Source: a virus
Lineage: Duplodnaviria; Caudoviricetes
Direction: 5' to 3' (one strand)
Virus record (IMG/VR): IMGVR_UViG_3300033068_001957
Location: 64,001-128,000 of that record
DNA: 64,000 nucleotides
The stretch's first letter is position 1, and the number at the start of each line of letters is the position of its first letter. Below are positions 3,429-41,501 of this stretch, one piece after another. Below the pieces are notes generated by a model that was given only the letters and a program-made list of their open reading frames with translations, did no database searches and had not been told where the DNA came from. The position numbers and the translations under genes were made by a program.

Positions 3429-3701
3429 TTAGTAGAAAAGTTGAATAGCTGCCGAACCAGTATTTAGAGAAATATTTGTGATTGGACCGAGGATTTCCGT
3501 AGGATTCGTTAGACTTCTACCGACAAGATAAGAAATGCCGCTCATATTTATACCAGTAATTCCTCCAAGGATAACGGTTCCGTCAATAGAGCGAAAACCT
3601 ACGAAGCCGTTTGTGTTAGTTGCTGTTTGTCCACCCGTGATGAGAAGACAACCCTTTCCACCCAAAGAAGAAATCGCCGTAGATTGAATAGAATAGTCCA
3701 T
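3429..3701 (-). CDS. small virion protein
   Basis: ATG 3701 lies 10 nt after GTGTAA motif; Gly/Thr rich. Confidence 0.6.
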   Translation of the reverse strand: MDYSIQSTAISSLGGKGCLLITGGQTATNTNGFVGFRSIDGTVILGGITGINMSGISYLVGRSLTNPTEILGPITNISLNTGSAAIQLFY

Positions 3702-3839
3702 ATAAAACAGATTACACGAAAGACCAACAATTAAACCAAAAAGTCCACCCACCCTTTAATTAGGGCATAATCTACTTCTGGCATCTTGACCTTTTGGGCG
3801 CAACCGCTTAAAAACAGAATGGCGGTGAAAATAATCACC

Positions 3840-4265
3840 CTAAATGCGTACCCGATTGATTGAATTTTGTTCATTTTTTGAGAGTTTTAGGGGTTTTCCT
3901 GATTGTGGTTCGATATATATTACGCCGACATTGGTAAATGCTACGTTAATTGAATGATATTCGCCACTGTCTTTGGTGTAGTCAATGGCTCCAACGGCTA
4001 ATCCATCCTGTGTCCCGCGACTATTAAAGTGGCAAACTTGAGAAAGAATCTTATACATGGCCGAAAAGTCTTCACAGTCGAATTTCTTGGACCAATCAAT
4101 GATTCCAAGACGCTCTAGTTCGCTGCAAAAATAAGGGTAAAACTTATTTATTAGCCAATCCTCGGTTGGACAATTGTATGAATCGTCTCCAAATGTTGTG
4201 CCCGATGGGTAGATTTTCGCCACAAAGGGAAATTGCAAAAACCACGCGACGGGGACACTTTTCAT
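3840..4265 (-). CDS. papain/transglutaminase-like cysteine peptidase domain protein
   Basis: FDCEDF...YHSIN...IEPQ pattern. Confidence 0.6.
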   Translation of the reverse strand: MKSVPVAWFLQFPFVAKIYPSGTTFGDDSYNCPTEDWLINKFYPYFCSELERLGIIDWSKKFDCEDFSAMYKILSQVCHFNSRGTQDGLAVGAIDYTKDSGEYHSINVAFTNVGVIYIEPQSGKPLKLSKNEQNSINRVRI

Positions 4266-4330
4266 GTATTAAATTACACTTATTTGTTTGAGGGGCGTTA
4301 GTATAATGTGTAAAAAAAATACATATATCT

Positions 4331-4846
4331 ATGACTCTATCCTTCTGGAAACCTTCCCCCTTCGAAAAAGATGGCCAATATACTGGCGCAGCATTTTCAT
4401 TTAAACTAATGAAAACTCCAGACGGCCCAAAATTCATAATGTCAGGGGTCAAGCAAAAATCTTACGACCCAGTAAAGAAGCTTGGTTCTTTTTACAACAA
4501 CAAAGATCATCTAGAGCATAGCGTTTCTGTCAAATTTAATGAAATCGAACTTGGCAACCTAATCCATTCGATCAAAAATTACAAAGACTTTTCTGCCTTT
4601 CATAGTTTTAAGGACGATAAAACTACGATTACCTTCAAACCCTATACCAAAAAGCCGAAACAGGGGGAAGTTGAGGGCGTAAAGGCTTTTTCTCTTACCG
4701 TTAAGAAGAATGGAAGTTTACAGATTGGTCTTGGCATCGAACTTGGAGAAGCAGAAGCATTATTAGTTTTTGTCCAAACGGCGCTTATCGAGATGTTTTA
4801 TGCTAGTGGGCAACAGCCACAGAAAGAAGAACGTTCGGGAGAATAA
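4331..4846 (+). CDS. putative ssDNA-binding protein (Whirly/PC4-like)
   Basis: duplicated beta-strands+helix pattern (VKFNEIELGNL / IELGEAEALL). Confidence 0.4.
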   Translation: MTLSFWKPSPFEKDGQYTGAAFSFKLMKTPDGPKFIMSGVKQKSYDPVKKLGSFYNNKDHLEHSVSVKFNEIELGNLIHSIKNYKDFSAFHSFKDDKTTITFKPYTKKPKQGEVEGVKAFSLTVKKNGSLQIGLGIELGEAEALLVFVQTALIEMFYASGQQPQKEERSGE

Positions 4847-4847
4847 T

Positions 4848-5579
4848 ATGCTCGTCTGCTATTTCGGGAAAAATAGTTTAAATAATTCTGGAATCTATAA
4901 AATATCTAATTCTATAGATGATAGAATATATATTGGATCGTCCAAAAGTTTTCGCGCCCGTTTTAAAAAGCATGAATTTGATTTGGCGGAAGGAAGGCAT
5001 CACTCTATCCATATGGAAAGGTTTTGCTCTAAATATTTCGAAGATGTCATTTTTTATTTTGAGATTTTAGAGATTACAGAAAAAGACCAACTCATAAATC
5101 GAGAACAATATTATTTAGATACCTTGCTACCATTTGGCGAAAAGGGCTTTAATATGAGAAAGAAGGCAATTTCTTCGGCTGGGACACAAAAGGTCAAAAG
5201 GTCATTTTATCAATACGATAAGGATGGAAATGAGATTTCTTTTTTAAATATAGAGGAAATGGCGTCTTCGACTGGACTAAATAAAAACACAATGAGAGGA
5301 GCCTTGACGGGGCAATTTAAAACGTGTGGAGGTTTCATTTTTTCCTATGATAAACTTTCAAAAGAAGAAGTAAATAATATTTTGGCAGACAAAAGAAAAA
5401 CGAGATACACTAGACCAAATCTAAATCGTAGAGTTACGGCAATTTCCCTTGAACACGGCAAACATGAGTATGAAACTGCATTGAAAGCATCCCAAGAGCT
5501 TGGCATATGTGATATTTCTATTAGAAAAGCTTGTAGGAAAGGCCATTATTATAAAGGCTATAAGTGGAGTTATTCTTAA
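4848..5579 (+). CDS. GIY-YIG homing endonuclease with NUMOD-type C-terminus
   Basis: GIYKI...IYIGSS...R...REQYYLD...FN; IRKACRKG..YKGYKWSY. Confidence 0.9.
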   Translation: MLVCYFGKNSLNNSGIYKISNSIDDRIYIGSSKSFRARFKKHEFDLAEGRHHSIHMERFCSKYFEDVIFYFEILEITEKDQLINREQYYLDTLLPFGEKGFNMRKKAISSAGTQKVKRSFYQYDKDGNEISFLNIEEMASSTGLNKNTMRGALTGQFKTCGGFIFSYDKLSKEEVNNILADKRKTRYTRPNLNRRVTAISLEHGKHEYETALKASQELGICDISIRKACRKGHYYKGYKWSYS

Positions 5580-5597
5580 TGAGTTAATATATACTCG

Positions 5598-7520
5598 ATG
5601 AACAAAAAGAAAATTCTATTCCAAGGTAATGCCTCCTTCCTAAATACTGGCTTCGGCGGAGTAAAAAAAAGAATCATGCGCTGGTTTTTTAAGCGCGGCT
5701 GGGAAGTAATTGAGTGTTTGAATGGAGTTGAATGGGATGATCCTCAGTTAAAAAGACTGCCGTGGAAGGCGTACGGCATGAATCCATCCGCCGAACAAAG
5801 AAATCAGATTCAGTCTATTCAAGACGCTGGACAAAGAGATGGCGCAATGCGTTCTGCCAGTTACGGTCTCTATCGCATTGACGAAGTAATGAGGTTGGAA
5901 AAGCCGCAAATTCAATATTTTCTAGAAGATTCGTGGGGATTTGGAGATATTTATAAAAAACCTTGGGCGCAAAAAACTAATCCATATTTTCATTGCACCA
6001 TAGATTCAAAACCGTTGCTCGATTCTCAAATAGAATTAGGATTACATGCTAAAAATCTTCTAGTATGGGCATCATTTGCAGAACAGCTTTATTATGAGAA
6101 GGGATACACTCACGTAAGAACTTTGCCAGGATGTATTGACCCCGAAGAATTTTATCCAATTCCAGAAGATTGGCGTAATGAGTTAAGAAAGAAATTTAAT
6201 TTACAAGATCAATTTGTTACATTATTTCTCGGAAGATCGCAGTTACGAAAGCAGTTCCCTAATTTATTGGATGGATTTAAGCTTTTTAAAGAAAAGAATC
6301 CTGATATTAAAGCTAAGTTGATATTTCACTGTTCATGGGTTGAGGGATGGCCGCTGCCACAGTTGATTCAAGAAAAGAGTATCGATCCTAATGATGTATT
6401 AACGACTTATTATTGTCGCGCCTGTCGTGGATATGAGATTCGCCCGTTTACTGGTCAACCTCTAGACTGTCCTCTTTGTGGCGCGAAACAGAGTTTTAAT
6501 ACTACTGACATTATGCATGGAGTAGGTGAATCTGACCTATGTGATATCTATGGATTGTCTGATCTAGTAGTTAATCCAATTTCCAGCGGCGGTTTTGAGC
6601 TAAGTAGCTTTCAAGCTAAGATGTGCGGTAAAATATTAGCAACGACATCTTATTCTTGTGGATTGGACGCATGTTCAGAAGAAAGTGCTGGTATTCCTCT
6701 CGATTGGGAAGCATATACGGAACCAAACACGGTTTTTACGAAAAGCACAACAAGGCCATCATCAATTTGTGACGCTATGGAAAAAGTCTATTCCATGCCT
6801 AAAAATGAAAAACTAGCGATGGAAAAGAAGACTAGAGATTTCGCCGTGAACTATTGTTCTACAGATGCAGTTTGCGAAAGGCTAGAAAAAATGTTTCTAG
6901 AACATCCAGACGTAGAACTTTTAGACAGTGATTTCGACCCCCAACCCAAAAACCCCCATTATATCCCGCCAAATGGGTTAAGCCCAGAATCCTTCGCCAT
7001 CGACATCCTTACCAATATGATGCTCGAAAAAGTGGACGCTAACACTTCTCATGTGAAAAATTGGGCCGCGCATCTTCGCAAGTCCAACGATTATCAGGGC
7101 GTTTACAATCATTTCCAAAAGCTGGCGCTGCAATTCAACGCCAATCTTGATAACAAACCAATAGATTTAGGCGACCTACTAGACAAAGATGACGCGCACA
7201 AACGGCTGGCAATCGTAATCCCTGAGAGCGCGGGCGACATCATCATTATTAATTCTTTGCTGAAAAAGTTTAAGGCGCTCTACCCAGAGCAAAACCTTTA
7301 CTTCTTCACGCGGCCCGAATTTTTCCCTCTCCTCGAAGGACATCCCTCTATCTATAAACTTATGGAGTATTCTCCAATTTTAGAAAACATGTTTTTTATG
7401 ACGGGCAATAATGGACATTCTGGTTACTTCACCCATGTCTTCTATCCCCATGCTCTTACTCAAAAAACAATGAGCTATCAAAATGGAAATACCGAAGCGC
7501 GTGCGGAATGGTTAAGTTAA
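5598..7520 (+). CDS. glycosyltransferase (GT-B/GT4-like) with Zn-finger insert and C-terminal GT9-like domain
   Basis: TGFG N-motif, GRSQLRK, GGFELS..AKMCG, CRAC..CPLC, SAGDII..NSLL. Confidence 0.8.
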   Translation: MNKKKILFQGNASFLNTGFGGVKKRIMRWFFKRGWEVIECLNGVEWDDPQLKRLPWKAYGMNPSAEQRNQIQSIQDAGQRDGAMRSASYGLYRIDEVMRLEKPQIQYFLEDSWGFGDIYKKPWAQKTNPYFHCTIDSKPLLDSQIELGLHAKNLLVWASFAEQLYYEKGYTHVRTLPGCIDPEEFYPIPEDWRNELRKKFNLQDQFVTLFLGRSQLRKQFPNLLDGFKLFKEKNPDIKAKLIFHCSWVEGWPLPQLIQEKSIDPNDVLTTYYCRACRGYEIRPFTGQPLDCPLCGAKQSFNTTDIMHGVGESDLCDIYGLSDLVVNPISSGGFELSSFQAKMCGKILATTSYSCGLDACSEESAGIPLDWEAYTEPNTVFTKSTTRPSSICDAMEKVYSMPKNEKLAMEKKTRDFAVNYCSTDAVCERLEKMFLEHPDVELLDSDFDPQPKNPHYIPPNGLSPESFAIDILTNMMLEKVDANTSHVKNWAAHLRKSNDYQGVYNHFQKLALQFNANLDNKPIDLGDLLDKDDAHKRLAIVIPESAGDIIIINSLLKKFKALYPEQNLYFFTRPEFFPLLEGHPSIYKLMEYSPILENMFFMTGNNGHSGYFTHVFYPHALTQKTMSYQNGNTEARAEWLS

Positions 7521-7528
7521 TATAATGC

Positions 7529-8683: not shown

Positions 8684-9948
8684 AGGGAGAATTTTAGTAA
8701 AAATAAGTAATTTTTCTAAAATCAAGTGTAATATACTATGAGTGACACATCGCGCATATAAATTCCGAATCTATCCGACTTCAGAACAGGAAGTTCTTTT
8801 ACGAAGGACTATTGGTAGCTGCCGCTATATTTATAATTGGGCGCTGAATATGAAAAGGGAGGAATGGGTTCAAAATAAAAAAAATCTATCTTATGCTAAA
8901 GTATGCAAATCCTTGACGGAAACGAAAAAGGTGCTGGATTATAATTGGCTTAATAATGTATCAAGTGTTTGCTTGCAGCAGTCATTGAGAAACTTAGATG
9001 TTGCATTTGTTAATTTCTTTAAAAAACGCGCTTCTTATCCAAGTTTTAAATGTCGTAAAAATGGCGGTTCTGCGCGCTTCCTTCAAAATGCATTTCGGAT
9101 TAATGGAGATAATTTATTTCTTGCAAAGATTGAATCTCCGATTAAAGTCTCTTGGACGCGAAAGTTAAATGGGAAATCTAACCAATGTGTTGTCTCTCAA
9201 AACGCTGCTGGCCAATGGTTCGCCTCATTTCTTTATGAAGAAGAGATTGAAAAATTAGCGCCGCTAGATAAAGATGTCGGTATTGACTTGGGGATCGAAA
9301 CGTTCGCGTCAACCTCAGACGGGCAAAAGTATGGACAGCCTAAGCGCATTCGTCGATTGAGAAAGAAGTTGGCGCGTTTGCAACGCCAGCATTCTCGCAA
9401 GATTAAGGGTTCAAAGAACCGTGAAAAGGCTCGCCTCAAGGTTGCCCGTTTGCACCAGCACATTTCAGATGTGCGCAAAGATTTTCTTCATAAGCTTTCC
9501 ACAAAACTCATTCGTGAAAACCAAACGATTGCGTTGGAGGATTTGGCCGTTAAAAACATGGTTAAGAATCGTAAACTTTCTCGCTGTATCAGCGAACAAG
9601 GCTGGCGAATATTCCGAAATATGTTAAAGTATAAGGCTGAGTGGTATGGGCGAGAATTGGTCATCATTGACCGATTCTACCCGAGCAGCAAGACGTGCTC
9701 TTGCTGCGGAAGAAAAACAAATCTTTCGCTTGACAAACGAAAGTGGACATGCGAATGTGGTGTTACGCATGACCGAGACATTAACGCCGCCAAGAATATT
9801 CTCGCCGCTGGACAAGCGGTGCCATTTGCCTGTGGAGCAGACACAAGACCATCGAAGAACTACGTTCTTCGGGGCAGTCCGCGACGAAGCAGGAAACCTA
9901 AAGCGTGAGCTAAAGAATCTTTGTCATTCGTGGCAAAGAGAATGTCAA
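8594..9948 (+). mobile_element. TnpB cassette: recoded GT9 tail + late promoter + tnpB + omegaRNA/right end; no left-end hairpin
   Basis: starts after TTAT (8590-8593); ends GAAT-CTTTGTCA-TTCG-TGGCAAAG-AGAATG-TCAA (IS608-type right end). Confidence 0.85.
8742..9908 (+). CDS. tnpB: RNA-guided endonuclease TnpB
   Basis: HRAYKFRIYPT; RuvC GIDLG / LEDL / DRDINAAKN intact; CSCC..CEC Zn finger. Confidence 0.95.
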   Translation: MTHRAYKFRIYPTSEQEVLLRRTIGSCRYIYNWALNMKREEWVQNKKNLSYAKVCKSLTETKKVLDYNWLNNVSSVCLQQSLRNLDVAFVNFFKKRASYPSFKCRKNGGSARFLQNAFRINGDNLFLAKIESPIKVSWTRKLNGKSNQCVVSQNAAGQWFASFLYEEEIEKLAPLDKDVGIDLGIETFASTSDGQKYGQPKRIRRLRKKLARLQRQHSRKIKGSKNREKARLKVARLHQHISDVRKDFLHKLSTKLIRENQTIALEDLAVKNMVKNRKLSRCISEQGWRIFRNMLKYKAEWYGRELVIIDRFYPSSKTCSCCGRKTNLSLDKRKWTCECGVTHDRDINAAKNILAAGQAVPFACGADTRPSKNYVLRGSPRRSRKPKA

Positions 9949-9968
9949 AAGCAAAACATTCCATTCTC
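9830..9968 (+). ncRNA. TnpB omegaRNA with predicted guide AAGCAAAACAUUCCAUUCUC
   Basis: overlaps tnpB 3' end; CGAAGAAC-TAC-GTTCTTCG hairpin shared with second element; 5' boundary approximate. Confidence 0.7.
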
Positions 9969-10038: not shown

Positions 10039-10041
10039 TTT

Positions 10042-19221: not shown

Positions 19222-19589
19222 AGTTTGTCTTTTAATTCAATAACATCGCATTTATGATCTGGCGGTTCATAAAGACCAAATTTTTCTTGCGCCAAAGAAT
19301 AAATAAGAAATGGATAAAGCGTATTATCAGAATTAACCTTGTCAAAACTGCTCGGCGAACAATCACCCACAATATGAGAATGAAAAACTGCTACCATGTT
19401 GTGAGAGCGCGAAAATCTTAACGATTCCATCGGATCAATAGAGAAGTATTCTTTGGGGTTTTGGTGTTTGTTTTTTACAATTTTGCAAGAATATTCGCCG
19501 CCCTTCTCTCCCAAAAAGCCGCAAATTTCCATCGCCCTACAAAGCATGGACTGTTCCTTAAAATAAGATAGACACTCTTGAATAGTCAT
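19218..19589 (-). CDS. tail assembly protein K-like, JAB domain only
   Basis: EICG...FHSH...PSSFD; no NlpC/P60 domain. Confidence 0.85.
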   Translation of the reverse strand: MTIQECLSYFKEQSMLCRAMEICGFLGEKGGEYSCKIVKNKHQNPKEYFSIDPMESLRFSRSHNMVAVFHSHIVGDCSPSSFDKVNSDNTLYPFLIYSLAQEKFGLYEPPDHKCDVIELKDKL

Positions 19590-20521
19590 TGGGAAAATCT
19601 ATATCTTTCTGTGCCGCAGTATCCGCCAAATCGAATATGTCCCAAATAGGCGGGATTAGTTATATCATCGACAAACCGTTTCTTGCATCCTGTAATTGTT
19701 TTGGAGCACTCGTCTTTTTCCCAATAGGCCGCGCCGTCCAATTTGTTTGGGCTGTTTAGGGCGGTAGCAATGTGGGCAACCTTGCAGACGAAGACGGTTC
19801 TAGGCGGGTCAACTCTGTTTTCCACATACACAATATTACCAGCAGAATAAGTTGTTCCTTCAGTCCATAGATTTTGGGCGGAAGATATGCTGTAATTCTC
19901 GTCTGGAGTCACGGTAAAAGCGGTATCGTCTTTTTTCACTATTGGTTTGCCGCAGTAATTGCAGCCCTTGCCGCGATACTGAAATGGGCAATAACGACTC
20001 AATACAATGCGTCCTGGCGTCGTCTGATTCGCCAAATCAAATGGAGCAGAAAGAGATAGCGACACATAGATTTTATTTTCGGCCAGCTTTTGATAAACGA
20101 TAAATGTTTCGCGGGAAATTTCTGCGTTTGGGTCGGGAACTCCATATGGATTTTCGCCCGAATCAAAGTTTACATCGTCAATATATTTTAGCAGCGTTTG
20201 GATTCTTACCAGTTTGGCGTTTTTGAAATCATTTTTGCGCCGCATTAATTGGCTTATTTGTTGATTCTTGTTGGAGATTTTAATCTCGGGGCGGTTCATT
20301 CGTCCTAGAGAGTTCTTTTCAATGGGGTCAACCTCACAAGGAATTGGTGTATAAGCGACACCGCCGAAAATAATCGGCATATCTAATCCATTCGTTGACG
20401 CGGAAAAACTGAAAAAGTTTTCGGGTTCATCTATGACATTAAAATACAAGCGCCATAACTGTAAAACAGTATTCCCGTTGATAGGGTCGATAGATTGGGC
20501 GATTTTATCAGATAACCTCAT
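19586..20521 (-). CDS. minor tail protein (lambda gpL-like)
   Basis: CPFQYRGKGCNY...DECSK..GCKKRF..FGGY. Confidence 0.9.
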   Translation of the reverse strand: MRLSDKIAQSIDPINGNTVLQLWRLYFNVIDEPENFFSFSASTNGLDMPIIFGGVAYTPIPCEVDPIEKNSLGRMNRPEIKISNKNQQISQLMRRKNDFKNAKLVRIQTLLKYIDDVNFDSGENPYGVPDPNAEISRETFIVYQKLAENKIYVSLSLSAPFDLANQTTPGRIVLSRYCPFQYRGKGCNYCGKPIVKKDDTAFTVTPDENYSISSAQNLWTEGTTYSAGNIVYVENRVDPPRTVFVCKVAHIATALNSPNKLDGAAYWEKDECSKTITGCKKRFVDDITNPAYLGHIRFGGYCGTERYRFSQ

Positions 20522-20561
20522 TTTTTAGTCCTTGGGCCTTTAGTATAGGTTACACATTGCT

Positions 20562-21712: not shown

Positions 21713-21736
21713 AGCTATTTGGTGTAATTCTCTTAT

Positions 21737-22735
21737 ATGGAAAATATACATCGGTGCATACCAAATGGTTTTTATGTCTATATTTTATTAGATCCAAGGT
21801 ATGAAGGCTTATTTAAATACGGAGAAGATTTAGAATTTTGCTTTCGCCCCTATTACGTAGGCAAGGGTGTAGGCAGAAGATATTTAAGACATTTTCATGA
21901 GTCTGAGTTTAAGAGGACGTACAATCAGCATAAAAATAATATTACGAAAAAGATAATGTTAGAAGGCTATGATCCTATTGATTTTGTTGTTTTCTTTAGG
22001 GATGGAATGGAAGAGAGTAGTGCTTTAGAATTAGAAAAGGAGATTATTTCTAAAATTGGTTGTACGTCATTAAAAAATGGTCCTCTTTCCAATAAAACTT
22101 CTGGGGGAGAAAGCCCAGGCTCATTTTTGAGAGGGCTTACATGGGAGCAAAGATATGGCGAAGATAAGGCGAAAGAGATGAAGATTAAAGCATCTAAGAT
22201 ACAAAAAACAATAAAAAAACCAGATCAAAGCGGCGAAAAAAACGCTTTCTTTGGGAAAAAACATTCAGAAGAAACAAAATTAAAATTAAGAAATTGCTTT
22301 TTGAAGCCTATTGTCAGGATAAGTGAATTTTTGGATATAAAAGAATATTCATCTCCCTGTGTTGCCGCCGAAGAAATGAAAAATTGTTTATCGACTTCAA
22401 TCAGTCACTCAGCGACTCAAACATCCAAAGGGATTCATTGCACGTCAGCTAATTTTGTATGGATATATAAAAAAGCTTTTGAGAATTTTTCTCAAGAAGA
22501 ATTAAAGGAATTTGTGAAAAGATCTTTTTTGCGTAAAAATCACGATAAAAAGAAGATTTGTCAATTAGACAGGAATACGAAAAAAGTAATCAAGGTTTGG
22601 GAGTCTATTTCGGATGCTGCTGAAAATATTTTTGGGAGTAGAAAAAGAACGGGAGATATTTCTGCCGCAATTACGCATGACCGACAATGCATGGGTTTCA
22701 GGTGGGAGAACGCGACAGCGGATGACGTTCCATAA
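21737..22735 (+). CDS. GIY-YIG homing endonuclease with NUMOD3 motif
   Basis: YVYIL...YYVGKG...E..II...N..SGG; GEKNAFFGKKHSEETK. Confidence 0.85.
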   Translation: MENIHRCIPNGFYVYILLDPRYEGLFKYGEDLEFCFRPYYVGKGVGRRYLRHFHESEFKRTYNQHKNNITKKIMLEGYDPIDFVVFFRDGMEESSALELEKEIISKIGCTSLKNGPLSNKTSGGESPGSFLRGLTWEQRYGEDKAKEMKIKASKIQKTIKKPDQSGEKNAFFGKKHSEETKLKLRNCFLKPIVRISEFLDIKEYSSPCVAAEEMKNCLSTSISHSATQTSKGIHCTSANFVWIYKKAFENFSQEELKEFVKRSFLRKNHDKKKICQLDRNTKKVIKVWESISDAAENIFGSRKRTGDISAAITHDRQCMGFRWENATADDVP

Positions 22736-25104: not shown

Positions 25105-25324
25105 GGAAAGTATTCGCCGCCAATTAAAAAACAATTAGAGTTTAATTGAAAGAGTCTCGGACAATGCTCCCCCTCCCCTCATAGAAACAAGGGTTAGGAG
25201 AGTGCTGTATTAGATTTGTTTTGCTTCGCCCTAATATATAAACCCCCAGCGAATTTTCCATTTTATAAAGCGACGGAGCTTGGGTTCTCACTCCCAGCCA
25301 TAACCGCATACAACCGTGTTTGAA

Positions 25325-25445
25325 GCTAAACTTACGATTAGAAAAAGCAAAAGGCTACCGATCTGTAGGGGATTCACGGTAGCCTTCGCTGGTGTCTAAT
25401 CAGGGGAGGATTGATCTTCCCCTACAGAAGACAACCTTATCATAA
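25325..25445 (-). ncRNA. candidate structured small RNA / terminator-switch
   Basis: three mutually interacting inverted repeats downstream of a GTGTAA motif; strand inferred. Confidence 0.45.
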
Positions 25446-25517
25446 CAATATTACACGTCTAAAACGATTTTTCAAAGAAATCCTTGACATTTGTTGTCTT
25501 TTGTTCTAATATAACAC

Positions 25518-29849: not shown

Positions 29850-30235
29850 TCATGTGGCCCTTCTCATCTAAACCCGAACCAATCTGGGAACAAGTCGAAA
29901 AAAAGTTCCTCCGCCAAAAGACAGATGTTCCATTGCATGTTTGGGATACTATGGATGTATTTAATGTCTACGCTATCACCTACAAAGATGTTTTGACGGG
30001 TAAAAAGAAAATCGAAGAAATTCACGAATTAGTATGGTAAATTATTATACAGACAGCGCCCGAAAGTCTTTGTGGGTATTATCAAATCCAATGGACGGAA
30101 ATTATAAATCCATTATATGTTTCGCGGCGGAAGAAGATTCGGGCTTTCATGTGGGTCAGCGAGCAAATAATCCCAAGCTTGACAACTCCAACTGGCAACC
30201 CCTCGAAGGCGAGATTTCAATTTCAGATATTCTGT

Positions 30236-30763
30236 ATGTTTAATTTTGACCCCTTCTATAAAGAGCATTTTCCGAAGATCAGAGATTACGCCCGCATTCA
30301 TGGTCTGCAACTTGCAGACTGCGAAGACATTTCTCAAGACATCCTTCATGGTTTTTGGCGGAAAATCCAAGATGGGCGGGCGAATCCAAACGATCAGGGA
30401 GTCTTGAAGTATTTATACAAGCTCGCCAAGTGGCGAATCATAGATAAAGCACGAAAAAATATCACCCACAACAAAAACTACGATCAAGTCGGCCCAGAAA
30501 ATGATCTTGACGAGCTAATTAAGGATGAGGACGAAAACCAAGGCTGGAAACGCGAAATCCTCTGGCGGGCAACAAAACAAATTAAACCATTAGTAACAAC
30601 AAAATATTACAACTGCTTTGTGGCCCAAGTTTTTGAAGATAAACACCCAAGCGAAATGCTCAATCTTTACGGAGTTAAAATCGCCAATGCTTATCTGGCG
30701 CGTCATAGGGTCGGCCAAAAAGTAATCGCCGCCGCAAAAGAACTAATCAAGGATGGAATTTAG
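30236..30763 (+). CDS. ECF-type sigma-70 factor
   Basis: DCEDISQDI...YLYKLAKWRIIDKARK (region 2); AYLARHRV (region 4). Confidence 0.85.
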   Translation: MFNFDPFYKEHFPKIRDYARIHGLQLADCEDISQDILHGFWRKIQDGRANPNDQGVLKYLYKLAKWRIIDKARKNITHNKNYDQVGPENDLDELIKDEDENQGWKREILWRATKQIKPLVTTKYYNCFVAQVFEDKHPSEMLNLYGVKIANAYLARHRVGQKVIAAAKELIKDGI

Positions 30764-31208
30764 CTTTTTTAACTTCTATCGCTGCTCCAAAGGCTGGCAA
30801 ATTACCATCGGCGAGTTCAAATATTTTGACACCCGCAAAAGCTGGTGTATCTTTCTGTTGAACAAAAGAAAAAACCAACCATTTTACCATAAATTCTGTG
30901 TCTGAACAGCCCAAAAAAGAAACCTTTGCAATAACCTTGGCGAAAGCCCATTTAGAATCTGAGATGACCGATTATATTATCTTTGGAGTCGATAGGAAGA
31001 AAGAGCCGCTAGAACTTATCGAATATTATAATGTTGGTTCGGAAGAAACGCTGGCAAAACTATATAAACTATTTTTGGCGAGGACAGAAAAACATGACTA
31101 ATTCAAATGGCAAGGGCGATAAACCCAGAAGCGGCGCAAATTACTCCGCCTATTGGAATAACTGGCATAAAATGAAAATCGTGGGAAACATCTTCGAAAC
31201 GAAATAAT

Positions 31209-31676
31209 ATGAAACTACTCGGATATCATAACGGCAAACAAGTAGTAGCCTCAATGGCTCGTCATGACTATAACGCTATCGAAGGCGCTATGGCCGATGG
31301 TGGACAACCATCTACACTACAATATGGTGGATATAATCGTTGGAACGGAAAATCTATCTGGTTCCAAGTACCTCAGTCTTTTGCAGAACTCTATAACGAC
31401 TATAGAGACAACGCCGCTAATCGTAAATATGGAATTTGGGATCTTAAAGACGTAAAAATTCTTTCTCCCGAAGAAATTCCAGATACAGAATCTTTTGAAT
31501 GGCGAGCAGAAAATGCAATCTGGGGAACCAAGGGTATCGACGGCACACAGCGAACAAAATACGTCCATTTAAAAGACTGTTCAAAAGAACACCTAGAAAA
31601 GATAGTCGAATTGTGTAAGGCGCGGAATGCAAAAGACGTTCTTCAATACGCCGAATACTGGCTTAATCAAAAATGA
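31209..31676 (+). CDS. hypothetical phage protein
   Basis: RHDY...DGG; WGTKGIDG. Confidence 0.7.
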   Translation: MKLLGYHNGKQVVASMARHDYNAIEGAMADGGQPSTLQYGGYNRWNGKSIWFQVPQSFAELYNDYRDNAANRKYGIWDLKDVKILSPEEIPDTESFEWRAENAIWGTKGIDGTQRTKYVHLKDCSKEHLEKIVELCKARNAKDVLQYAEYWLNQK

Positions 31677-31746
31677 AAACAGACGACGAAATCATTGGCA
31701 CCCAAGATTGGGAACTAGAAGGCTGCGAAGATTAACAAATACACAT

Positions 31747-31893
31747 ATGCTGAACGACCTAAAATCACTCTACACGGAAATCTGCGACAGTTGGTCACAC
31801 ATCATTAATCCAATTTTGCTTAAATATCTGAATTTTGCGGATTCTGTTGAAGAAACGCTATTAGTTGCTCTACTACTTCTTGATGACGATTGA
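31747..31893 (+). CDS. small protein whose stop codon is supplied by the IS right end
   Basis: ends GAT TGA; empty-site reconstruction ends GAA TAA. Confidence 0.55.
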   Translation: MLNDLKSLYTEICDSWSHIINPILLKYLNFADSVEETLLVALLLLDDD

Positions 31894-33237
31894 ACTTTGC
31901 CACGAATAGAGCGCGGCATTCATCTTTTGTCGGGCGTTCTTGATTTTTTCCATCCTAAGACGAAGTTTCCAAGCCTCGCGACTCAGTTTTACTCTTTCGC
32001 TGCCGAATGCCGCGAAGAACGTAGTTCTTCGTTGGTCTTCCATCGACTCCAGAGTCAGTAACCACTAATCCAGCGGCCAAAATGTTTTTCGCAGCGTTAA
32101 CGTCTCTTAAGTGGTCAGCGCCGCAGCCGCCACACGTCCATTGCCTTGTTTCTAGGCCAAAGCTGGCCTTCGCCCCACAACACGAACACGTTTTGCTGCT
32201 CGGAAAGAACCGATCTACAACGTGTAGCTCGCGTCCATACCATTCGCATTTGTATTCTAGCATGGTGCGAAAGTCTCGCCAGCCTTGCTCGCTGATACAG
32301 CGAGAGAGCTTGCGGTTCTTGACCATGTTTGACACCGCCAAGTCTTCCAACGCAATCGCTTGGTTTTCGCGAACGAGTTGGGTTGACAGTTTGTGAAGGA
32401 AATCTTTGCGCACGTCTGCGATGTGCTGGTGAACACGGGCGACTTTCTTGCGAGCGCGTTCGCGGTTTTTAGAACCTTTTACTTTGCGAGAATGTAAGCG
32501 TTGAAGGCGGGCTAGTTTTTTACGCAAGCGGCGAATGCGCTTGGGCTGCGAAAACTTGCGGCCATCGCTCAAAGTCGCAAAATGTTCAATGCCAACGTCG
32601 ATACCGATTTTGTTTGAAGAAGGTGGGAGCTTGGCGACTTCTTCCTCACAAAGGAACGAAGCAAACCATTGGCCAGCAGCGTTTTGCGATACGGTAACGG
32701 AGTTTGGTGCTCCCGAGAGAGGGCGCGACCATTGAACTTTGATAGGCTCGCTCATTTTAGCGAGGAAAAGATTATCTTCTTTCAATCGAAAAGCGTTATC
32801 CATAAACCGTGCAGAACCGCCGTTTTTACGAGCTTTAAACGATGGATAAGCGTTTTTCTTTTTAAAGAAATTATTAAACGCCATATCTAGATTTCTCAAT
32901 GACTGCTGCAAGCAAACGCTCGATACATCATTGAGCCACTGGCGTTCGGGAGAATCCTTAAGATCGGTCAAACCTCGCGACGTTGCGCCATAAGTGACGC
33001 TTTTCTTATTCGTAACCCAAGCTTCGCGTTTTTGTGCGAGCGCCCAATTATATACAAATCTGCACGATCCTATCGTTTTACGCAAGATTTCCTCTTGACA
33101 AATTGTTGGATAGATGCGATACTTGTATGCGCGGTGCGTCATTCACTAATAGTTACACTTAACTTTACAAACTTTCCTAAAACAATGCGAAAATTCATCC
33201 CCTTCCTAAAGAAAGGGGTCTTCTTTTCGTCAATTTT
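31890..33237 (-). mobile_element. complete non-autonomous IS200/IS605 (IS1341-type, tnpB-only) element, TAM TTAT
   Basis: LE: TTAT|N15-AAGA-CCCCTTTCTTTAGGAAGGGG; RE: GAAT-GCCGCG..CGTGGC-AAAGT-TCAA. Confidence 0.9.
31955..33142 (-). CDS. tnpB: RNA-guided endonuclease TnpB
   Basis: RuvC GIDVG / LEDL / RDVNAAKN intact; close paralogue of 8742-9908. Confidence 0.95.
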   Translation of the reverse strand: MTHRAYKYRIYPTICQEEILRKTIGSCRFVYNWALAQKREAWVTNKKSVTYGATSRGLTDLKDSPERQWLNDVSSVCLQQSLRNLDMAFNNFFKKKNAYPSFKARKNGGSARFMDNAFRLKEDNLFLAKMSEPIKVQWSRPLSGAPNSVTVSQNAAGQWFASFLCEEEVAKLPPSSNKIGIDVGIEHFATLSDGRKFSQPKRIRRLRKKLARLQRLHSRKVKGSKNRERARKKVARVHQHIADVRKDFLHKLSTQLVRENQAIALEDLAVSNMVKNRKLSRCISEQGWRDFRTMLEYKCEWYGRELHVVDRFFPSSKTCSCCGAKASFGLETRQWTCGGCGADHLRDVNAAKNILAAGLVVTDSGVDGRPTKNYVLRGIRQRKSKTESRGLETSS

Positions 33238-35731: not shown

Positions 35732-35803
35732 TCTCTCGTAATTCAACAGTAGAATGCCACTCTTTTAAAGTGGAGGTTGAAGGTGCAACTCCTTCCGAGA
35801 GAA
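35732..35803 (+). tRNA. tRNA-Lys(UUU)
   Basis: TCTCTCG/CGAGAGA acceptor, CCACT-CTTTTAA-AGTGG anticodon arm, GAAGG-TGCAACT-CCTTC T arm. Confidence 0.88.
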
Positions 35804-35818
35804 CTAATTTACAACATT

Positions 35819-37798
35819 ATGTTTAAAGACATCAGAACCCAAATGCAAGCCAAGTTCAACGAAATCGTTGCAACTGGAAAACTTTTCACTGTGAATGCTA
35901 ACCGCGATGAAGTCTGGCAAACTTATCTAAACGCTTTCTCAGAAGATAAGAAGCAAGAAAATACCTGCAATTGCTGCAAATCGTTCATTCGCCAATATGG
36001 GTCTATCGTAGGAATTAATAGCAAGAATGAGAAAATAACACTTTGGGACTTCATAACGACGGACGAAGAATACGCCGAACCGATCAAAGCTCTTAGCAAG
36101 TATATCAAGAGTCTGCCGATTACTGGAATCTTTTTCGCCGAACAAAAGAAATGCGGCGTGGAAAAAAATCCAGATAGCGTGCGGGGAATTATTTGGGATC
36201 ATTATAACATTGAAATGCCCCCGACTTTCGTAAAGAAAGATTTTGGCCCGTTGCAAGCTACCGCTTTGGATAGCAAAAACGTATTAAAGCGTTCATTCGA
36301 AGAAATTACAGATGATGCAGTAGATACTGTTCTTGAACTTATCGCCCAAGGTTCCCTTTATCGCGGCGAAGAACACAAGAAAACCGTTTCAGATTTTCGC
36401 GCCCTAAAAGAAAAATATAAGAAACTTAAAAATACTCAACACAAGGATAATTTCTGCTGGATTGAATCGGCGAAAGTCGGAGGAAATGTTTCGCACATTC
36501 GGAATACTTCTATCGGAACGTTACTTAATGATTTGAGCGACGGGAAAGAACTTGATAAGGCCGTAAGCTCTTTTGAAAAAGTAGTTGCTCCTACGAACTA
36601 CAAGCGTCCTACGGCGCTCGTAACCCCGCGAATGATTGAAGATGCTCAAAAGACTTTGGATGAGCTAGGATTGACTAGCGCTCTCTATCGCCGCATGCTC
36701 TCGACTAACGATTTAAACGTTAATAATAGCTTGTTTGTTTATCGTCCGAAGAAAGTTGAAACGAATATCTTTGATGAATTGAAGAATGCCGCGCCAGTAA
36801 ATCCGAAATCTTTCGCTAAGGTAGAAGAGGTTTCGATTAGCGATTTTGTGGAAAAGATTCTACCTACTTGTAAGTTGGTAAAAGTCTTAGTTGAAAACAC
36901 CCATTTGGGAAATTTTGTTTCTCTTGTTGGGCCGAAAAATCTCGAAGACACTGAAACACTCTTTAAATGGGGCAATAATTTCTCTTGGAGCTATTCTGGG
37001 AATGTTGCTGACAGTATCAAAGAGCGCGTTAAAGCTGCTGGTGGAAATGTCGATGGGGTAATGAGAATTAGTCTCAGTTGGGATAATACTGACGATCTTG
37101 ATTTGCACCTTCAAGGGCCAAATCGCGAGCATGTTTATTATTCATCTAGACATGGCGCTAGTGGAGCTACTCTGGATGTTGATGCAAATGGTCTTGACGG
37201 CATCCGAGAAGACCCTGTTGAAAACATTTACTGGAAATCCCTACCAAAGGATGGAAATTATAAAGTCGTCGTTAACAACTACAATAAACGCGGCGCATCC
37301 AATCAAGGGTACACTCTCGAAATCGAATATGATGGTCAAACTTGCCATTGGTCATCCGAAACAAATAATGCTCCAAATAAAGAAATCGTTTCTTTTGATT
37401 TTTCTAAAAAGACTGGAATTAAATTCTCTACGCCTGTTAGAGCAAGCATTGGAAAATACAATTCAAAAGATAAATGGGGAATTTCTACTGGCGTATTTCA
37501 TAATGTAAAGGCGGTCACTCTTAGCCCTAATTTCTGGAATTCAGCGGTTGGAAACAAGCATTTCTTCTTTATGTTGGATGAATGTAAGTCCGATGAAAAG
37601 ACTCGCGGCATTTATAATGAATTCTTGGACGAAAAATTCTCAAAACATCGCAAGGTTTTTGAAATTTTGGGTAGCAAGGTAGCCGTAGAACCAGTTGTCG
37701 ATGAACTTTCTGGACTCGGCTTCTCAGATACCATTCGCACCGAATTAGTCGCCGAAATTGAAGGAAAATTTAAAAGAACCATCAAAATTAAGTTCTAA
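35819..37798 (+). CDS. large hypothetical phage protein with YfaP/DUF2135-like domain
   Basis: CNCCKSFI; LSWDNTDDLDLH...LDVDAN...PVENIYW; start moved behind tRNA. Confidence 0.7.
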   Translation: MFKDIRTQMQAKFNEIVATGKLFTVNANRDEVWQTYLNAFSEDKKQENTCNCCKSFIRQYGSIVGINSKNEKITLWDFITTDEEYAEPIKALSKYIKSLPITGIFFAEQKKCGVEKNPDSVRGIIWDHYNIEMPPTFVKKDFGPLQATALDSKNVLKRSFEEITDDAVDTVLELIAQGSLYRGEEHKKTVSDFRALKEKYKKLKNTQHKDNFCWIESAKVGGNVSHIRNTSIGTLLNDLSDGKELDKAVSSFEKVVAPTNYKRPTALVTPRMIEDAQKTLDELGLTSALYRRMLSTNDLNVNNSLFVYRPKKVETNIFDELKNAAPVNPKSFAKVEEVSISDFVEKILPTCKLVKVLVENTHLGNFVSLVGPKNLEDTETLFKWGNNFSWSYSGNVADSIKERVKAAGGNVDGVMRISLSWDNTDDLDLHLQGPNREHVYYSSRHGASGATLDVDANGLDGIREDPVENIYWKSLPKDGNYKVVVNNYNKRGASNQGYTLEIEYDGQTCHWSSETNNAPNKEIVSFDFSKKTGIKFSTPVRASIGKYNSKDKWGISTGVFHNVKAVTLSPNFWNSAVGNKHFFFMLDECKSDEKTRGIYNEFLDEKFSKHRKVFEILGSKVAVEPVVDELSGLGFSDTIRTELVAEIEGKFKRTIKIKF

Positions 37799-37843
37799 AA
37801 ACCTATTGACAAACACCTAATTCTTAACTAAAATAACAAACAT

Positions 37844-38236: not shown

Positions 38237-38247
38237 GATTTTTAAAT

Positions 38248-38324
38248 TACGCTTTGTCCGAGTAGTTAGGAGCCTGTCGCTTAAACGGGTCTAGCCTAGA
38301 TGCAAATTCTAGGAGGCGTAACCA
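38248..38324 (+). tRNA. atypical tRNA (apparent anticodon CUU, G33), possibly pseudo-tRNA
   Basis: TACGCTT/AGGCGTA-A-CCA; anticodon loop CGCTTAA; extra base between T stem and acceptor. Confidence 0.55.
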
Positions 38325-38327
38325 AAT

Positions 38328-38397
38328 CAGCCGTTAGTTTAAAGTAGAACGCATCCATTTGGCGGATGAAATCCTTTTGCGAGTATTGGGCGGCTGA
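38328..38397 (+). tRNA. degenerate tRNA (loop reads UUG/Gln; C1-G72/A73 are Pro-like)
   Basis: CAGCCGT/GCGGCTG-A; CATCC-ATTTGGC-GGATG; T stem has two mismatches. Confidence 0.55.
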
Positions 38398-38404
38398 CTA
38401 ATTT

Positions 38405-38434
38405 AAGAGCGGCGATTAATTTCGCCGCTCTTTT
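38405..38434 (+). terminator. intrinsic terminator
   Basis: AAGAGCGGCGA-N6-TCGCCGCTCTT-TT. Confidence 0.8.
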
Positions 38435-38469
38435 CTTGACTAGAAAGAAAATTAAGCTATAATATCGCC

Positions 38470-38850
38470 ATGTACTTCCGAATCTATAACAAGCTGGAAT
38501 CCAAATACGAAGATTCCTCCAAAACCATTGCTCACAATGGGGAAATCGTTGGTTTGAAAAATAAAATCATTGGTGGCTGGACGGTTACATTTTCGCCTGC
38601 TGAAAACTTTATTGTCGAACCATGGACAGGCTATTTCGACAAAAATGGCAAAAAAATCTACAACGGCGATATTCTCGAACAGTACAGCATATTTGATTTC
38701 AAGAGTAAAGTAGTATGGAAAAACGGCGGATTCATGATGGTTCCTATTGATCCAGAAGGGATTGAGAATACCATGGGCTATTCGGGCATCCTAAAAGGTT
38801 GGACAATCACAGGAAATATCCACGAAGTTGAGTATTCTGAGGGAAAATAG
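38470..38850 (+). CDS. YopX family protein
   Basis: FRIYNK...TGYFDKNGKKIYNGDIL...ITGNIHE. Confidence 0.85.
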   Translation: MYFRIYNKLESKYEDSSKTIAHNGEIVGLKNKIIGGWTVTFSPAENFIVEPWTGYFDKNGKKIYNGDILEQYSIFDFKSKVVWKNGGFMMVPIDPEGIENTMGYSGILKGWTITGNIHEVEYSEGK

Positions 38851-38893
38851 AGAATATTGCGTGTAATATAGGATATAACAATCCTTTAAATAT

Positions 38894-39079
38894 ATGCAGT
38901 TTCTCATTGATCATTCTTCCGACATTCTTACCGCCCTAGCTTCCGTAGTCGCATCGGCTGCCGCTATCGCGACAATTTTCGGCAAATCCGATAATAAATA
39001 TATCGAAGGAGCCAGAAAATTTGTTAACTTTTTAGCCCTGAATTTTGGCAAGGCAGAAAATAAAGATGCTCCAAAATAA
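38894..39079 (+). CDS. putative holin-like membrane protein
   Basis: hydrophobic helix plus KFVNFLALNFGKAEN tail; own GTGTAA motif and terminator. Confidence 0.5.
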   Translation: MQFLIDHSSDILTALASVVASAAAIATIFGKSDNKYIEGARKFVNFLALNFGKAENKDAPK

Positions 39080-39105
39080 TCTTCACTCTCAACAATTAAC
39101 CCACG

Positions 39106-39131
39106 AAATCCGCCCATTGGGCGGATTTTTT
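39106..39131 (+). terminator. intrinsic terminator
   Basis: AAATCCGCCC-ATT-GGGCGGATTT-TTT. Confidence 0.8.
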
Positions 39132-39167
39132 GTTGACTTGTTTATGATTTTGGGCTAGAATATACAC

Positions 39168-39485
39168 ATGAAACCGCTAGACCAATTCACCCGTGATGAA
39201 AAATCGCAACTTCTCTATCTCGAAACTCGCCTTGTAGATTATTCTGGCAGAGTAGATACTAGGAAGATGAACAAAACTGATCACGACACCATGGAAAACT
39301 GGAAGAAGGAGGGGTTTGTTTCTTATGGTCGTATTTGTCATGCTGATGTCACTGATGGTGGAACCATGTGGTGCCAATTTTCAGATGAAGCGTGGCAATA
39401 TGCCCATCAAGCGAGAAAAAATCGAGCCACAGCCTCATGGAATAATCGGACATGGCAAACCACCGAAGAATATCGCAACTCTTAA
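39168..39485 (+). CDS. hypothetical protein
   Basis: leaderless promoter TTGACT-N17-TAGAAT. Confidence 0.7.
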   Translation: MKPLDQFTRDEKSQLLYLETRLVDYSGRVDTRKMNKTDHDTMENWKKEGFVSYGRICHADVTDGGTMWCQFSDEAWQYAHQARKNRATASWNNRTWQTTEEYRNS

Positions 39486-39489
39486 CAAC

Positions 39490-39690
39490 ATGGAAACATT
39501 TAACAACGCACACTGGTTTATTTTCGCCACTTCTATTTTTATTAGTTTCTGGATTGGAGTAATTCTAACAAATATAGAATATAAAGCGCCCGAATCTGGA
39601 TTTCAAATTATAATTGGGTTTATTGGGAATGCGGTGCTTATCATTGCTATGTTCTACAATCTCTTTCGAATCGTTCAGCCGCTTCTTTAA
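39490..39690 (+). CDS. two-TM membrane protein
   Basis: two hydrophobic segments. Confidence 0.6.
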   Translation: METFNNAHWFIFATSIFISFWIGVILTNIEYKAPESGFQIIIGFIGNAVLIIAMFYNLFRIVQPLL

Positions 39691-39691
39691 T

Positions 39692-39934
39692 ATGTTTAAA
39701 AAATTCTTGCTCCTATTCCCCCATTTTCAGCGACTCGAAAAATACCGCGCTGAACAAAAAGAAGAGGACCGCTTGAGGCGAGAAGAACTTATTAAACTTC
39801 TTGAAAAAGAAAAATACTGGAACGATCTATATGAAAAACAAGACGCTGAAAACCGCCGCCTTGAAGATATTCGCGAATCTTTGCTCGAAAACCAAAAATT
39901 CTTAAGATTGAGAATATCGCGCCAAACGTTTTAA
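39692..39934 (+). CDS. hypothetical coiled-coil protein
   Basis: packed ORF. Confidence 0.55.
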   Translation: MFKKFLLLFPHFQRLEKYRAEQKEEDRLRREELIKLLEKEKYWNDLYEKQDAENRRLEDIRESLLENQKFLRLRISRQTF

Positions 39935-40569
39935 CGGAGATATTTGTCAAATGCCATCCTAAGTTTCGGCGGAATCTGTTTGTAGGATTTCTGTAAACTG
40001 TCTGGCGCGTGTTTGGCGATCTTTCGAATGCAGCAAGAAACAACGGGCCATTTTCCCGTCTCCCCCATATATAAATAAGAATAAAGATAAGCCGACGACT
40101 GCCTTTGATACTCGGCCAAATCAATATACTTGGTCCAGCGGCGTTTAATTTCGCGAACTGTTTTGCGTTCGCAATCTAATTCGATGGCCAAAGCGGCGGC
40201 GATAGCAGCATGTTTTTTATAAATTCTTTGACCCGACAAATAAGAAAAAAACCTACTATGCCCATGACGGATTCTACCTTTGTACCAGATTGATTTAGGA
40301 TTGAGCCATTGACCCTTGAAGTGGGAAACTTCATGCAGAAGCGTTTGAAAACAAGATGTTAAAGATGAACCAATAGATACGGCCAAAATTTTTCTGCAAT
40401 CATCAAAATAGCCACCTGATCTACCACCACACGAATTAACCTGTTTCCCAGCGCCAACGAAAAATGTTACTCCATGTTGTTTGCATTTTTCATCCACTTC
40501 TAAAAAATAATTTCTTATTTCTTCGGGGAATTTCTTTAGAATTTTTCTTGCCTTTGATGATATTTTCAT
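39931..40569 (-). CDS. putative zinc metallopeptidase-like protein
   Basis: GGYF...TLLHEVSH...ELDCE. Confidence 0.6.
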   Translation of the reverse strand: MKISSKARKILKKFPEEIRNYFLEVDEKCKQHGVTFFVGAGKQVNSCGGRSGGYFDDCRKILAVSIGSSLTSCFQTLLHEVSHFKGQWLNPKSIWYKGRIRHGHSRFFSYLSGQRIYKKHAAIAAALAIELDCERKTVREIKRRWTKYIDLAEYQRQSSAYLYSYLYMGETGKWPVVSCCIRKIAKHAPDSLQKSYKQIPPKLRMAFDKYLR

Positions 40570-41351
40570 ATATTTAATCCATAACCAAACATGTCGCATC
40601 CATCCTTTGGCCGCGATTGATTCTCGCTGGCCCAGAGTGGTCTTAAATTTGAATAGTGAAAGCATCTTTCTTGTTCCTTCTCATCGAAAAGGTTAAAAGT
40701 ATTGCATGGAATAATATGATCAATATGCCATCCATATTTTCCATAATTGTCCCAAGACATCCCTTCTGTAAATTGCTTTTCAATGTAAAGATAGAGAAAA
40801 TCCAGACTGCATCCTGTTAAATTCATCGTTCTTTTTCGCTTTATAGCCTTTCTTTTCGCCAGAGAATAATGAATCACTTTAAGTAGTGACTGATAAATAT
40901 CCCTTTTCCCCCTGACTTTATCTTTGAATTCTTTTACTTCTTCTGAAAATAAATGCGAGCTTTTTGTTCTATAAATGTTTTTTATAGAAAATTCTCCAGA
41001 CCGCTCCTTTAAACAAAAAATTCTTCCTCCAATACTAGCTAATTTTTGCCTACCAGACTTCATCTCATAAACGTATTTTCCTTCATTATCATTGTATGGA
41101 ATATTTAAGTGAATGAATATACTTTTATTTTTTAAACACTCGAACTCTTCTTTAGAGTTTATATCAACAAGAGTAAAAATTAATCGCTCCTTATCTTTTA
41201 AAAGGCAGAGTCTATCAATAACTATTTTGTGTTTTTTATCCATTCTCAAATGAGAGATAAGAGATGGATCAATAGAAAAACATTTAGATATTTCTTTATT
41301 GGTTGCAGTGATGATTTGTTTCGTGATACAGTCGTATATTTCTTTAGCCAT
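40566..41351 (-). CDS. HNH-type homing endonuclease
   Basis: WDNYG..WHIDHIIPC...CFHYSNLRPLW..EN; ATG 10 nt after GTGTAA. Confidence 0.8.
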   Translation of the reverse strand: MAKEIYDCITKQIITATNKEISKCFSIDPSLISHLRMDKKHKIVIDRLCLLKDKERLIFTLVDINSKEEFECLKNKSIFIHLNIPYNDNEGKYVYEMKSGRQKLASIGGRIFCLKERSGEFSIKNIYRTKSSHLFSEEVKEFKDKVRGKRDIYQSLLKVIHYSLAKRKAIKRKRTMNLTGCSLDFLYLYIEKQFTEGMSWDNYGKYGWHIDHIIPCNTFNLFDEKEQERCFHYSNLRPLWASENQSRPKDGCDMFGYGLNI

Positions 41352-41501
41352 ATACATGAAATTACACATTTTCTTAGTCGAAAAGATAATTTTTTAAACA
41401 AACCTTTCATGCTTTAAATTACAGGAAAACTTTGATTTCTTGCTGGCAAAAGATTATTTTTTTTCTTGACAGGGTGAAAAAGACCGCCTATAGTTAAAAA
41501 C

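Follow-up and report, generated by a model that had tools for sequence, protein, structure and literature searches.

We analyzed the hexamer GTGTAA, with T or C as its seventh base (GTGTAAY), in a 64,000-nucleotide stretch of phage DNA, referred to here as the window. The window is bases 64001–128000 of the 160,188-bp IMG/VR virus record IMGVR_UViG_3300033068_001957; the whole record is termed G000 and has a G+C content of 40%. Comparison across genomes suggested, with a probability of about 0.6, that this phage family has a class of one-piece promoters with GTGTAA(T/C) at its core and without a −35 element, for which a phage sigma factor would be the reader. The motif points into genes. Its spacing is fixed: it lies 8–10 nt before start codons or, at genes with a leader, before a conserved A that often opens AAGGA. 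The family is an uncultured, widespread one of siphovirus-like phages of about 160 kb from freshwater and marine metagenomes. A complete relative (G001, 165,329 bp) was fetched for comparison. A more distant marine relative (G002, 98.5 kb) is 79% complete, with 3.9 kb between its portal gene and the end of the contig.

Position and conservation of GTGTAA

GTGTAA was not over-represented in the window, with 18 copies versus 18.5 ± 4.5 in shuffled sequences. The start codon (ATG or GTG) of an open reading frame (ORF) of at least 60 aa was located 8–10 nt downstream of 7 of the 18 copies, versus 1.1% of positions (p = 5.5e-10; the sites of tnpB1 and tnpB2, both among the seven, are homologous DNA and should be taken as one event). 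The remaining 96 kb of G000, independent of the window, had 7 of 40 copies so placed (p = 4.7e-7). Among all 4096 hexamers, GTGTAA ranked first at 6–12 nt before ATG-initiated ORFs of G000 (15/58, p = 4.7e-12), and it was again the first-ranked hexamer in G001 (11/61, p = 1.4e-7). The heptamer GTGTAAT was placed before ORFs in 11 of 25 copies, versus 4.5% for 210 permutations of its letters. In 41 de-duplicated relative loci, the count was 74/272 (p = 4e-40). The enrichment upstream of starts that the sequence-only reading had named as a check on its proposal, a phage-specific −10-only promoter, was therefore found genome-wide in G000 and replicated in G001.

The motif was also retained across relatives. 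In G001, GTGTAA[TC] was kept at 15/15 motif-led genes with a start-aligned orthologue versus 2/76 others (Fisher 2.5e-15), and the DNA flanking the kept motifs had diverged. The portal-like protein of 679 aa had about 80 relatives in viral contigs (46–89% amino acid identity). Nearly all of these orthologues carried GTGTA 8–14 nt before the ATG in variable surrounding DNA, and the forms of the element were GTGTAAT, GTGTAAC, GTGTATAAT, GTGTAAGATA, and GTGTATCATA. These statistics and the footprinting gave good support to a phage-family-specific, single-element, −35-less promoter-like signal. Directly upstream of the portal element, nearly all relatives had repeated palindromic boxes of the AAAGTTAACTTT type (genome 150150–150200, L014:6150–6200; L015–L094), which could be a regulator or packaging site.

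The coordinates and strands of the nine window sites given by the sequence-only reading were all reproduced. The core at 3712–3717 (−), followed by T, lies 10 nt upstream of the ATG (3701) of a 90-aa ORF (3429–3701), for which no orthologue was found in G001. The core at 4274–4279 (−), followed by T, lies 8 nt upstream of the ATG (4265) of a 141-aa ORF (3840–4265), and the motif was kept at the G001 orthologue. Two sites are located within the left ends of insertion sequences (ISs). One of them (8726–8731, +, followed by T) lies 10 nt upstream of the GTG (8742) of tnpB1 (8742–9908) and was retained in L222–L227 and G001; the other (33153–33158, −, followed by C) lies 10 nt upstream of the ATG (33142) of tnpB2 (31955–33142). 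The core at 21722–21727 (+), followed by T, lies 9 nt upstream of the ATG (21737) of a GIY-YIG/NUMOD3 endonuclease gene (21737–22735). The core at 41362–41367 (−), also followed by T, lies 10 nt upstream of the ATG (41351) of an HNH/endonuclease VII-like gene (40566–41351). The motif was kept at the G001 orthologue of this gene, and the longest ORF begins at 41369, within the motif. Two further sites precede leaders. The core at 20550–20555 (−), followed by C, lies 28 nt upstream of the gpL-like tail gene (19586–20521), the leader of which opens with A-rich AAAGG at +9 after the motif. The core at 38861–38866 (+), followed by T, lies 27 nt upstream of the gene of a 61-aa protein with a single transmembrane segment (38894–39079). 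The core at 25451–25456 (−), followed by T, is at the head of a conserved, ORF-free RNA region.

Element architecture and leaderless starts

Thirty-one functional-looking sites from G000 and a relative were aligned. The seventh base was T in 24/31 and otherwise mostly C. Every upstream column from −45 to −1 held less than 0.3 bit, and conservation was confined to GTGTAA(T), indicating a single element without a conserved −35, as had been proposed. A search for a −35 by column-wise information scan and 4-mer dyads surfaced only the TTGA...TA class. At promoters with a good −35, GTG was found ahead of the −10 in 0/45.

Among the G000 copies of GTGTAA[TC] with an ATG-initiated ORF within 60 nt, 13/27 were 8–12 nt from the ATG. 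At leadered sites (13–35 nt from the ATG; n = 25, G000 and G001), the ninth nucleotide after GTGTAA was A in 18/25, versus 21/63 of the ORF-less copies (p = 0.0017), and positions +9 to +13 often read AAGGA. Position +9 is the same place as the A of the ATG at 8-nt sites. This shared A suggested that transcription would start at about the ninth nucleotide after GTGTAA, which would put the motif at about −14 to −9. Most mRNAs would then start at the AUG or within 1–3 nt of it. Thus, the leaderless or near-leaderless mRNAs of the earlier proposal are predicted by the element-to-start geometry. AAGGA in the leaders was ruled out as a Shine–Dalgarno (SD) sequence, since its spacing was fixed to GTGTAA (+9 to +13) and varied from 2 to 13 nt to the ATG. 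SD-like tetramers were present before 16/209 called genes, which was the random rate, and position-specific composition before starts showed A/T richness only. Leaderless geometry suits a genome without SD usage.

The site at 25451 (−) heads a conserved non-coding RNA region (25150–25445, −), which was 73% identical over 312 nt to G001 69862–70164. Its first ~100 nt formed two hairpins (fold z = −5.0), and the second hairpin followed by UUUUGCUUUUU constitutes an intrinsic terminator (~25345–25390). The similarity to G001 started exactly at GTGTAA, and the upstream sequences were unrelated. Conservation from the motif onward at an ORF-free RNA favored a promoter and disfavored a translation signal. 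The first hairpin had compensatory changes, and strong conservation extended beyond the terminator. No Rfam family matched the region.

Back-to-back divergent pairs of the motif were present in both G000 and G001. At genome 5616(−)/5630(+), two GTGTAAT copies are back to back, 8 nt apart, for divergent genes. The equivalent intergenic region of G001 (53239(−)/53249(+)/53350(+)) holds a tnpB element and an extra GTGTAAT copy.

The same leaderless geometry was found in a second class. About 40 sigma70-type promoters (TTGACn-N16-18-TAnnnT) were located 3–9 nt, mostly 5–6 nt, before the ATG of short ORFs, with TTGACA-17-TATAAT-5/6-ATG as their overall layout. Most of them were on the + strand at window 34–63 kb (34000–63100), where a consensus scanner found 85 sigma70-like sites versus 47.9 ± 6.9 expected. 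Examples are 51523–51551, 56490–51518, and 58138–58166 (+). Another example, TTGACA-17-TAATAT-5-GTG at 25484–25512 (+), is divergent from the RNA promoter. Relative to the ATG, GTGTAAY stands where the sigma70-type −10 does, but without a −35. Window 34000–63100 looks like an early region, with a separate leaderless promoter of the host type for nearly each small gene, and early genes would be served by these TTGACA/TATAAT promoters.

A third leaderless class, GTTA[GA]TAT, was observed 5–7 nt before the ATG in 11/20 copies in G000 and 8/27 in G001. Its sites include window 1714–2126 (−), 5585–5592 (+), and 7518–7525 (+), and genome 62957, 51336(−), 50957(−), and 38295(−). It heads glycosyltransferase, sugar-pathway, and replication-side genes, and it may be a middle class, possibly read by the other phage sigma.

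Candidate readers and alternative explanations

Two sigma-like genes were found. The gene sigma1 (30236–30763, +; true start 30236) encodes a 175-aa protein with extracytoplasmic function (ECF)-type domains sigma2 and sigma4, and it is located within a co-directional block opened by the sigma70-type promoter at 25484. The top structural matches of its fold were Mycobacterium tuberculosis ECF sigmas, including sigma L and sigma H, together with E. coli sigmaE, AlgU, and SigW; phiEco32 gp36 was found by Foldseek at rank 22 with a probability of 0.82. A pattern scan of viral contigs for sigma1 relatives gave two unrelated contigs of 53% GC without the motif, which were discarded.

The gene sigma2 (genome 144188–144871) lies outside the window and encodes a 227-aa protein with a Sigma70_r2 match of 25.6 bits (Pfam cut-off 24), a Cys-rich linker, and a sigma4-like C-terminus. 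Its fold matches were all sigma factors, although weak. It is the last gene of an operon (genome 143194–144871, L013:17194–18871) that also contains a PAS-domain gene and a 94-aa Zn-ribbon gene and is conserved family-wide. The operon is headed by GTGTAAT-N6-GTTATTAT-N5-ATG, and this tandem recurs in freshwater relatives. In L015 (IMGVR_UViG_3300033068_001734), identity to G000 is 100% in the PAS, Zn-ribbon, and sigma2 genes but only 89% in the portal gene 5 kb off, which points to recent mosaic exchange.

The earlier proposal had named the window ECF sigma or a sigma factor encoded elsewhere as possible readers, and a gene of the latter kind thus exists. The sigma2 gene was present in 39 portal-linked loci, marine ones included, 5–6 kb upstream of the portal gene, whereas sigma1 was found in G000 and G001 only. 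The sigma2 protein therefore appears to be the better candidate reader of GTGTAA. RNA polymerase core would be brought to the motif by a phage sigma, preferably sigma2, with sigma1 as the alternative. Our initial objection, that a sigma4 domain speaks against a −35-less promoter, was dropped given phiEco32 gp36 (PMC12276001).

Several observations weigh against a promoter class read by a phage sigma. The link between sigma and motif is one of co-occurrence, and the narrow distribution of sigma1 is unfavorable. No sigma2 gene was found within 10 kb of the portal gene in the GTGTATCATA-type sub-clade of portal loci. G002 showed no global GTGTA enrichment, and few orthologous sites remained in it. 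The gene for the large subunit of ribonucleotide reductase is also motif-led, so the class is not purely one of virion genes. The start codons in all counts are from our own ORF calls. In addition, some relatives have GTG followed by a perfect TATAAT.

This last observation bears on a different reader. Host holoenzyme may recognize the motif as an unusual extended −10, in which GTG abuts TAAYnn or TATAAT, and a phage factor that disables −35 recognition may favor the class later. Thermus phage P23-45 and T4 AsiA are models for such a scheme. GTG+TATAAT, GTG+TATCAT, or GTG+TACCAT in relatives agrees with it. If TAAYnn is taken as the hexamer, its spacing to the ATG is mostly 5–7 nt, close to the 5–6 nt of the host-type class. 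G002 had no sigma homologue; however, this contig is incomplete, and sigma2 would fall beyond its end. The motif itself fits host recognition poorly. Its TG is one base nearer the hexamer than in the canonical TGn, and TG at −15/−14 with a near-consensus TATAAT, as in a sigma70 extended −10, was not found. The hexamers (TAATCT, TAATTT, and TAACTT) match TATAAT at 3–4 of 6 positions with T at −7 in 14/31, which is weak without a −35. TG preceded the −10 in none of the listed sigma70-type promoters scoring 10–12/12. Host recognition would also leave two phage sigma-like genes without a promoter class. We consider it unlikely, though worth keeping in mind.

GTGTAA might instead be a non-promoter site: an operator for a phage regulator, a site of RNA processing that makes leaderless ends, or a signal for SD-independent translation. 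It is short and near start codons, and without SD sites an alternative initiation signal is conceivable. However, it was present at only ~27 of ~210 genes, and its place at the head of a non-coding RNA excludes a translation signal. A dimeric operator is unlikely because the motif is asymmetric and 7 bp long. The conservation downstream but not upstream of the motif, the divergent back-to-back pairs, and the coincidence with the −10 position of the sigma70-type class also argued against this explanation, which we regard as improbable. That chance, together with common descent of IS ends and of duplicated cassettes, produced the pattern is barely credible: the total number of motifs equals the chance expectation and both window tnpB sites are homologous, but the positional statistics survived without the tnpB sites and were repeated outside the window and in G001, and the orthologue test spans unrelated genes.

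Gene content, mobile nucleases, and related systems

The motif-led virion genes were those of the portal-like, tail-tube-like, tape measure, and gpL proteins. Other motif-led units included a 518-aa gene, the 61-aa membrane protein gene, and the non-coding RNA. The class would serve mainly virion genes and so is probably middle or late; the "late" timing of the earlier proposal is plausible from gene content, though some motif-led units do not fit it. Inside the 518-aa gene (158015–159571), an internal GTGTAAC at genome 158835 (L014:14835) is followed, 20 nt downstream, by an in-frame ATG that opens a C-terminal product of 236 aa. This internal motif-led start was conserved in G001 (68997, minus strand), and the product looks like a nested scaffold-type gene.

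Selfish nucleases shared the motif with virion genes, as had been noticed. G000 has 14 selfish nuclease genes (7 GIY-YIG, 3 HNH/endonuclease VII-like, 1 LAGLIDADG, and 3 tnpB), and exact GTGTAAY was found at 9/14, including all three tnpB genes (Fisher 2.8e-6 versus the rest of the genome). The other five comprised one with ATGTAAT, one with a GTAGTAT-type sequence, two with a real SD, and one without a recognizable signal. Very few genes have an SD; the two GIY-YIG genes that do (GGGAG and GGAGG; window 4770–5579 (+) and genome 146852–147622) suggest a recent arrival from an SD-using genome. A DnaE-type polymerase region (genome 27356–32585, L010) is interrupted by an HNH gene (29994–30560, −) and a LAGLIDADG gene (31127–31939, +), and both are GTGTAAY-led.

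TnpB1 and TnpB2 contained HTH_OrfB_IS605, OrfB_IS605, and Cas12f1-like TNB domains, all passing the three cut-offs. The two genes were 70% identical, and their upstream DNA could be aligned through the motif, so that the two window sites represent one ancestral event and not independent acquisitions. The third gene, tnpB3, had 52% identity and the motif 19 nt upstream. Within the IS, the motif comes after the left-end hairpin and before the tnpB start codon. All six close phage-borne TnpB relatives (71–81% identity) kept GTGTAAT 9–11 nt before the ATG, and the spacer from hairpin to motif had diverged. Distant viral TnpBs were without the motif. Cyanobacterial TnpBs had GTGTAA in 1/72 and instead carried TTGACA-17-TACCAT with a leader of about 22 nt. 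The nearest tnpB copies of G001 were in different neighborhoods from those of G000. The sequence-only reading had taken the shared promoter as support for TnpB domestication. This argument was not supported: the promoter travels inside a mobile IS whose copies occupy different loci in the two genomes. The pattern is that of an IS lineage that is mobile and adapted to its phage, and not of a gene that was domesticated. The free-standing cassettes of nuclease genes, like the resident IS lineage of tnpB, would carry their own copy of the promoter.

These elements can be assembled into a speculative cascade, which we consider doubtful as a whole. In a phage with two sigma-like proteins and no SD usage, host-type, GTTARTAT, and GTGTAAY promoters would fire onto the AUG, and the family-wide sigma with the Cys-rich linker and its Zn-ribbon partner would read GTGTAA. 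The TnpB lineage and the homing endonucleases would have captured the element, which would restrict nuclease production to times when many phage genomes are present together, and TnpB would act as an RNA-guided homing nuclease in phage–phage competition.

The window also codes for lambda-like tail proteins (gpL and a 1354-aa gpJ-like protein), glycosyltransferases, two IS605-type tnpB genes, endonucleases, and a sigma-like protein; the tape measure (2171 aa) is encoded in G000 outside the window. For phrog_1735, a conserved protein of 673 aa, the longest ORF (window 35777–37798) starts within a tRNA-Lys (35732–35804), and the true start is probably near 35840. No close cultured phage was found among GenBank phages by megablast (8 kb) or by tblastn with the portal-like protein, and a 652-aa conserved protein matched only distant Ackermannviridae-type phages. 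NblA was searched as a host clue and was not found, and the cyanobacterial TnpB relatives were the sole host lead.

The results provide an operational promoter map for a family whose genomes otherwise look signal-free without SD sites. With GTGTAAY, GTTARTAT, and TTGACA/TATAAT 5–10 nt before the ATG as guides, it is possible to assign gene starts and transcription units. The results also give a tangible example of mobile nucleases, TnpB among them, that carry the promoter of their phage host, which makes the timing and purpose of phage-borne TnpB expression testable. No literature linking GTGTAA to a phage promoter was found.

The closest known case is the middle and late promoters of phiEco32, which depend on gp36 with gp79. 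The two-domain sigma homologue gp36 reads AATGTA centred at −11.5 without a consensus −35, and early phiEco32 genes use host sigma70-type promoters (PMC12276001). Both systems have a single hexamer with a TGTA core, here GTGTAA at a predicted −14 to −9 or so, no consensus −35, and a small two-domain sigma-like protein encoded by the phage. The differences are in the motif sequence, in the presence here of two sigma-like genes, of which one encodes a Cys-rich linker and is accompanied by a Zn-ribbon gene, in the absence of an identified gp79-like factor, and in the predicted leaderless messages. Neither sigma had detectable sequence homology to gp36, and a PDB profile search gave 9m7y_F, the ECF sigma chain of the gp79-dependent open complex, at E = 0.041 only.

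T4 late promoters (TATAAATA) are served by gp55, gp33, and gp45, and free-standing homing endonuclease genes often carry phage promoters of their own. Like them, the class described here is one-piece and confined to the −10 region, with a candidate phage sigma-family reader. Unlike them, its motif is GTGTAAY and TATAAATA was not found at the −10; the sigmas have a sigma4-like domain, there is no known sliding-clamp link, and T4 mRNAs have SD leaders. The extended −10 middle and late promoters of Thermus phage P23-45 are −35-independent; a G/T-rich stretch extends upstream from the −10, and many of the transcripts are leaderless. The reader there is host holoenzyme modified by gp39 and gp76, whereas phage sigma genes are present here and the TG is shifted from its canonical register. 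The TnpBs belong to the same protein family as those of cyanobacterial IS200/IS605 elements (41–48% identity), but in the phage lineage the signal 9–11 nt before the start is that of the phage itself. The kind of system is thus already known from phiEco32 and T4, and what is new is the sequence class in an uncultured family, which stands beside phiEco32 as a second natural example of a one-piece promoter of the TGTA type that occurs together with sigma-like phage genes.

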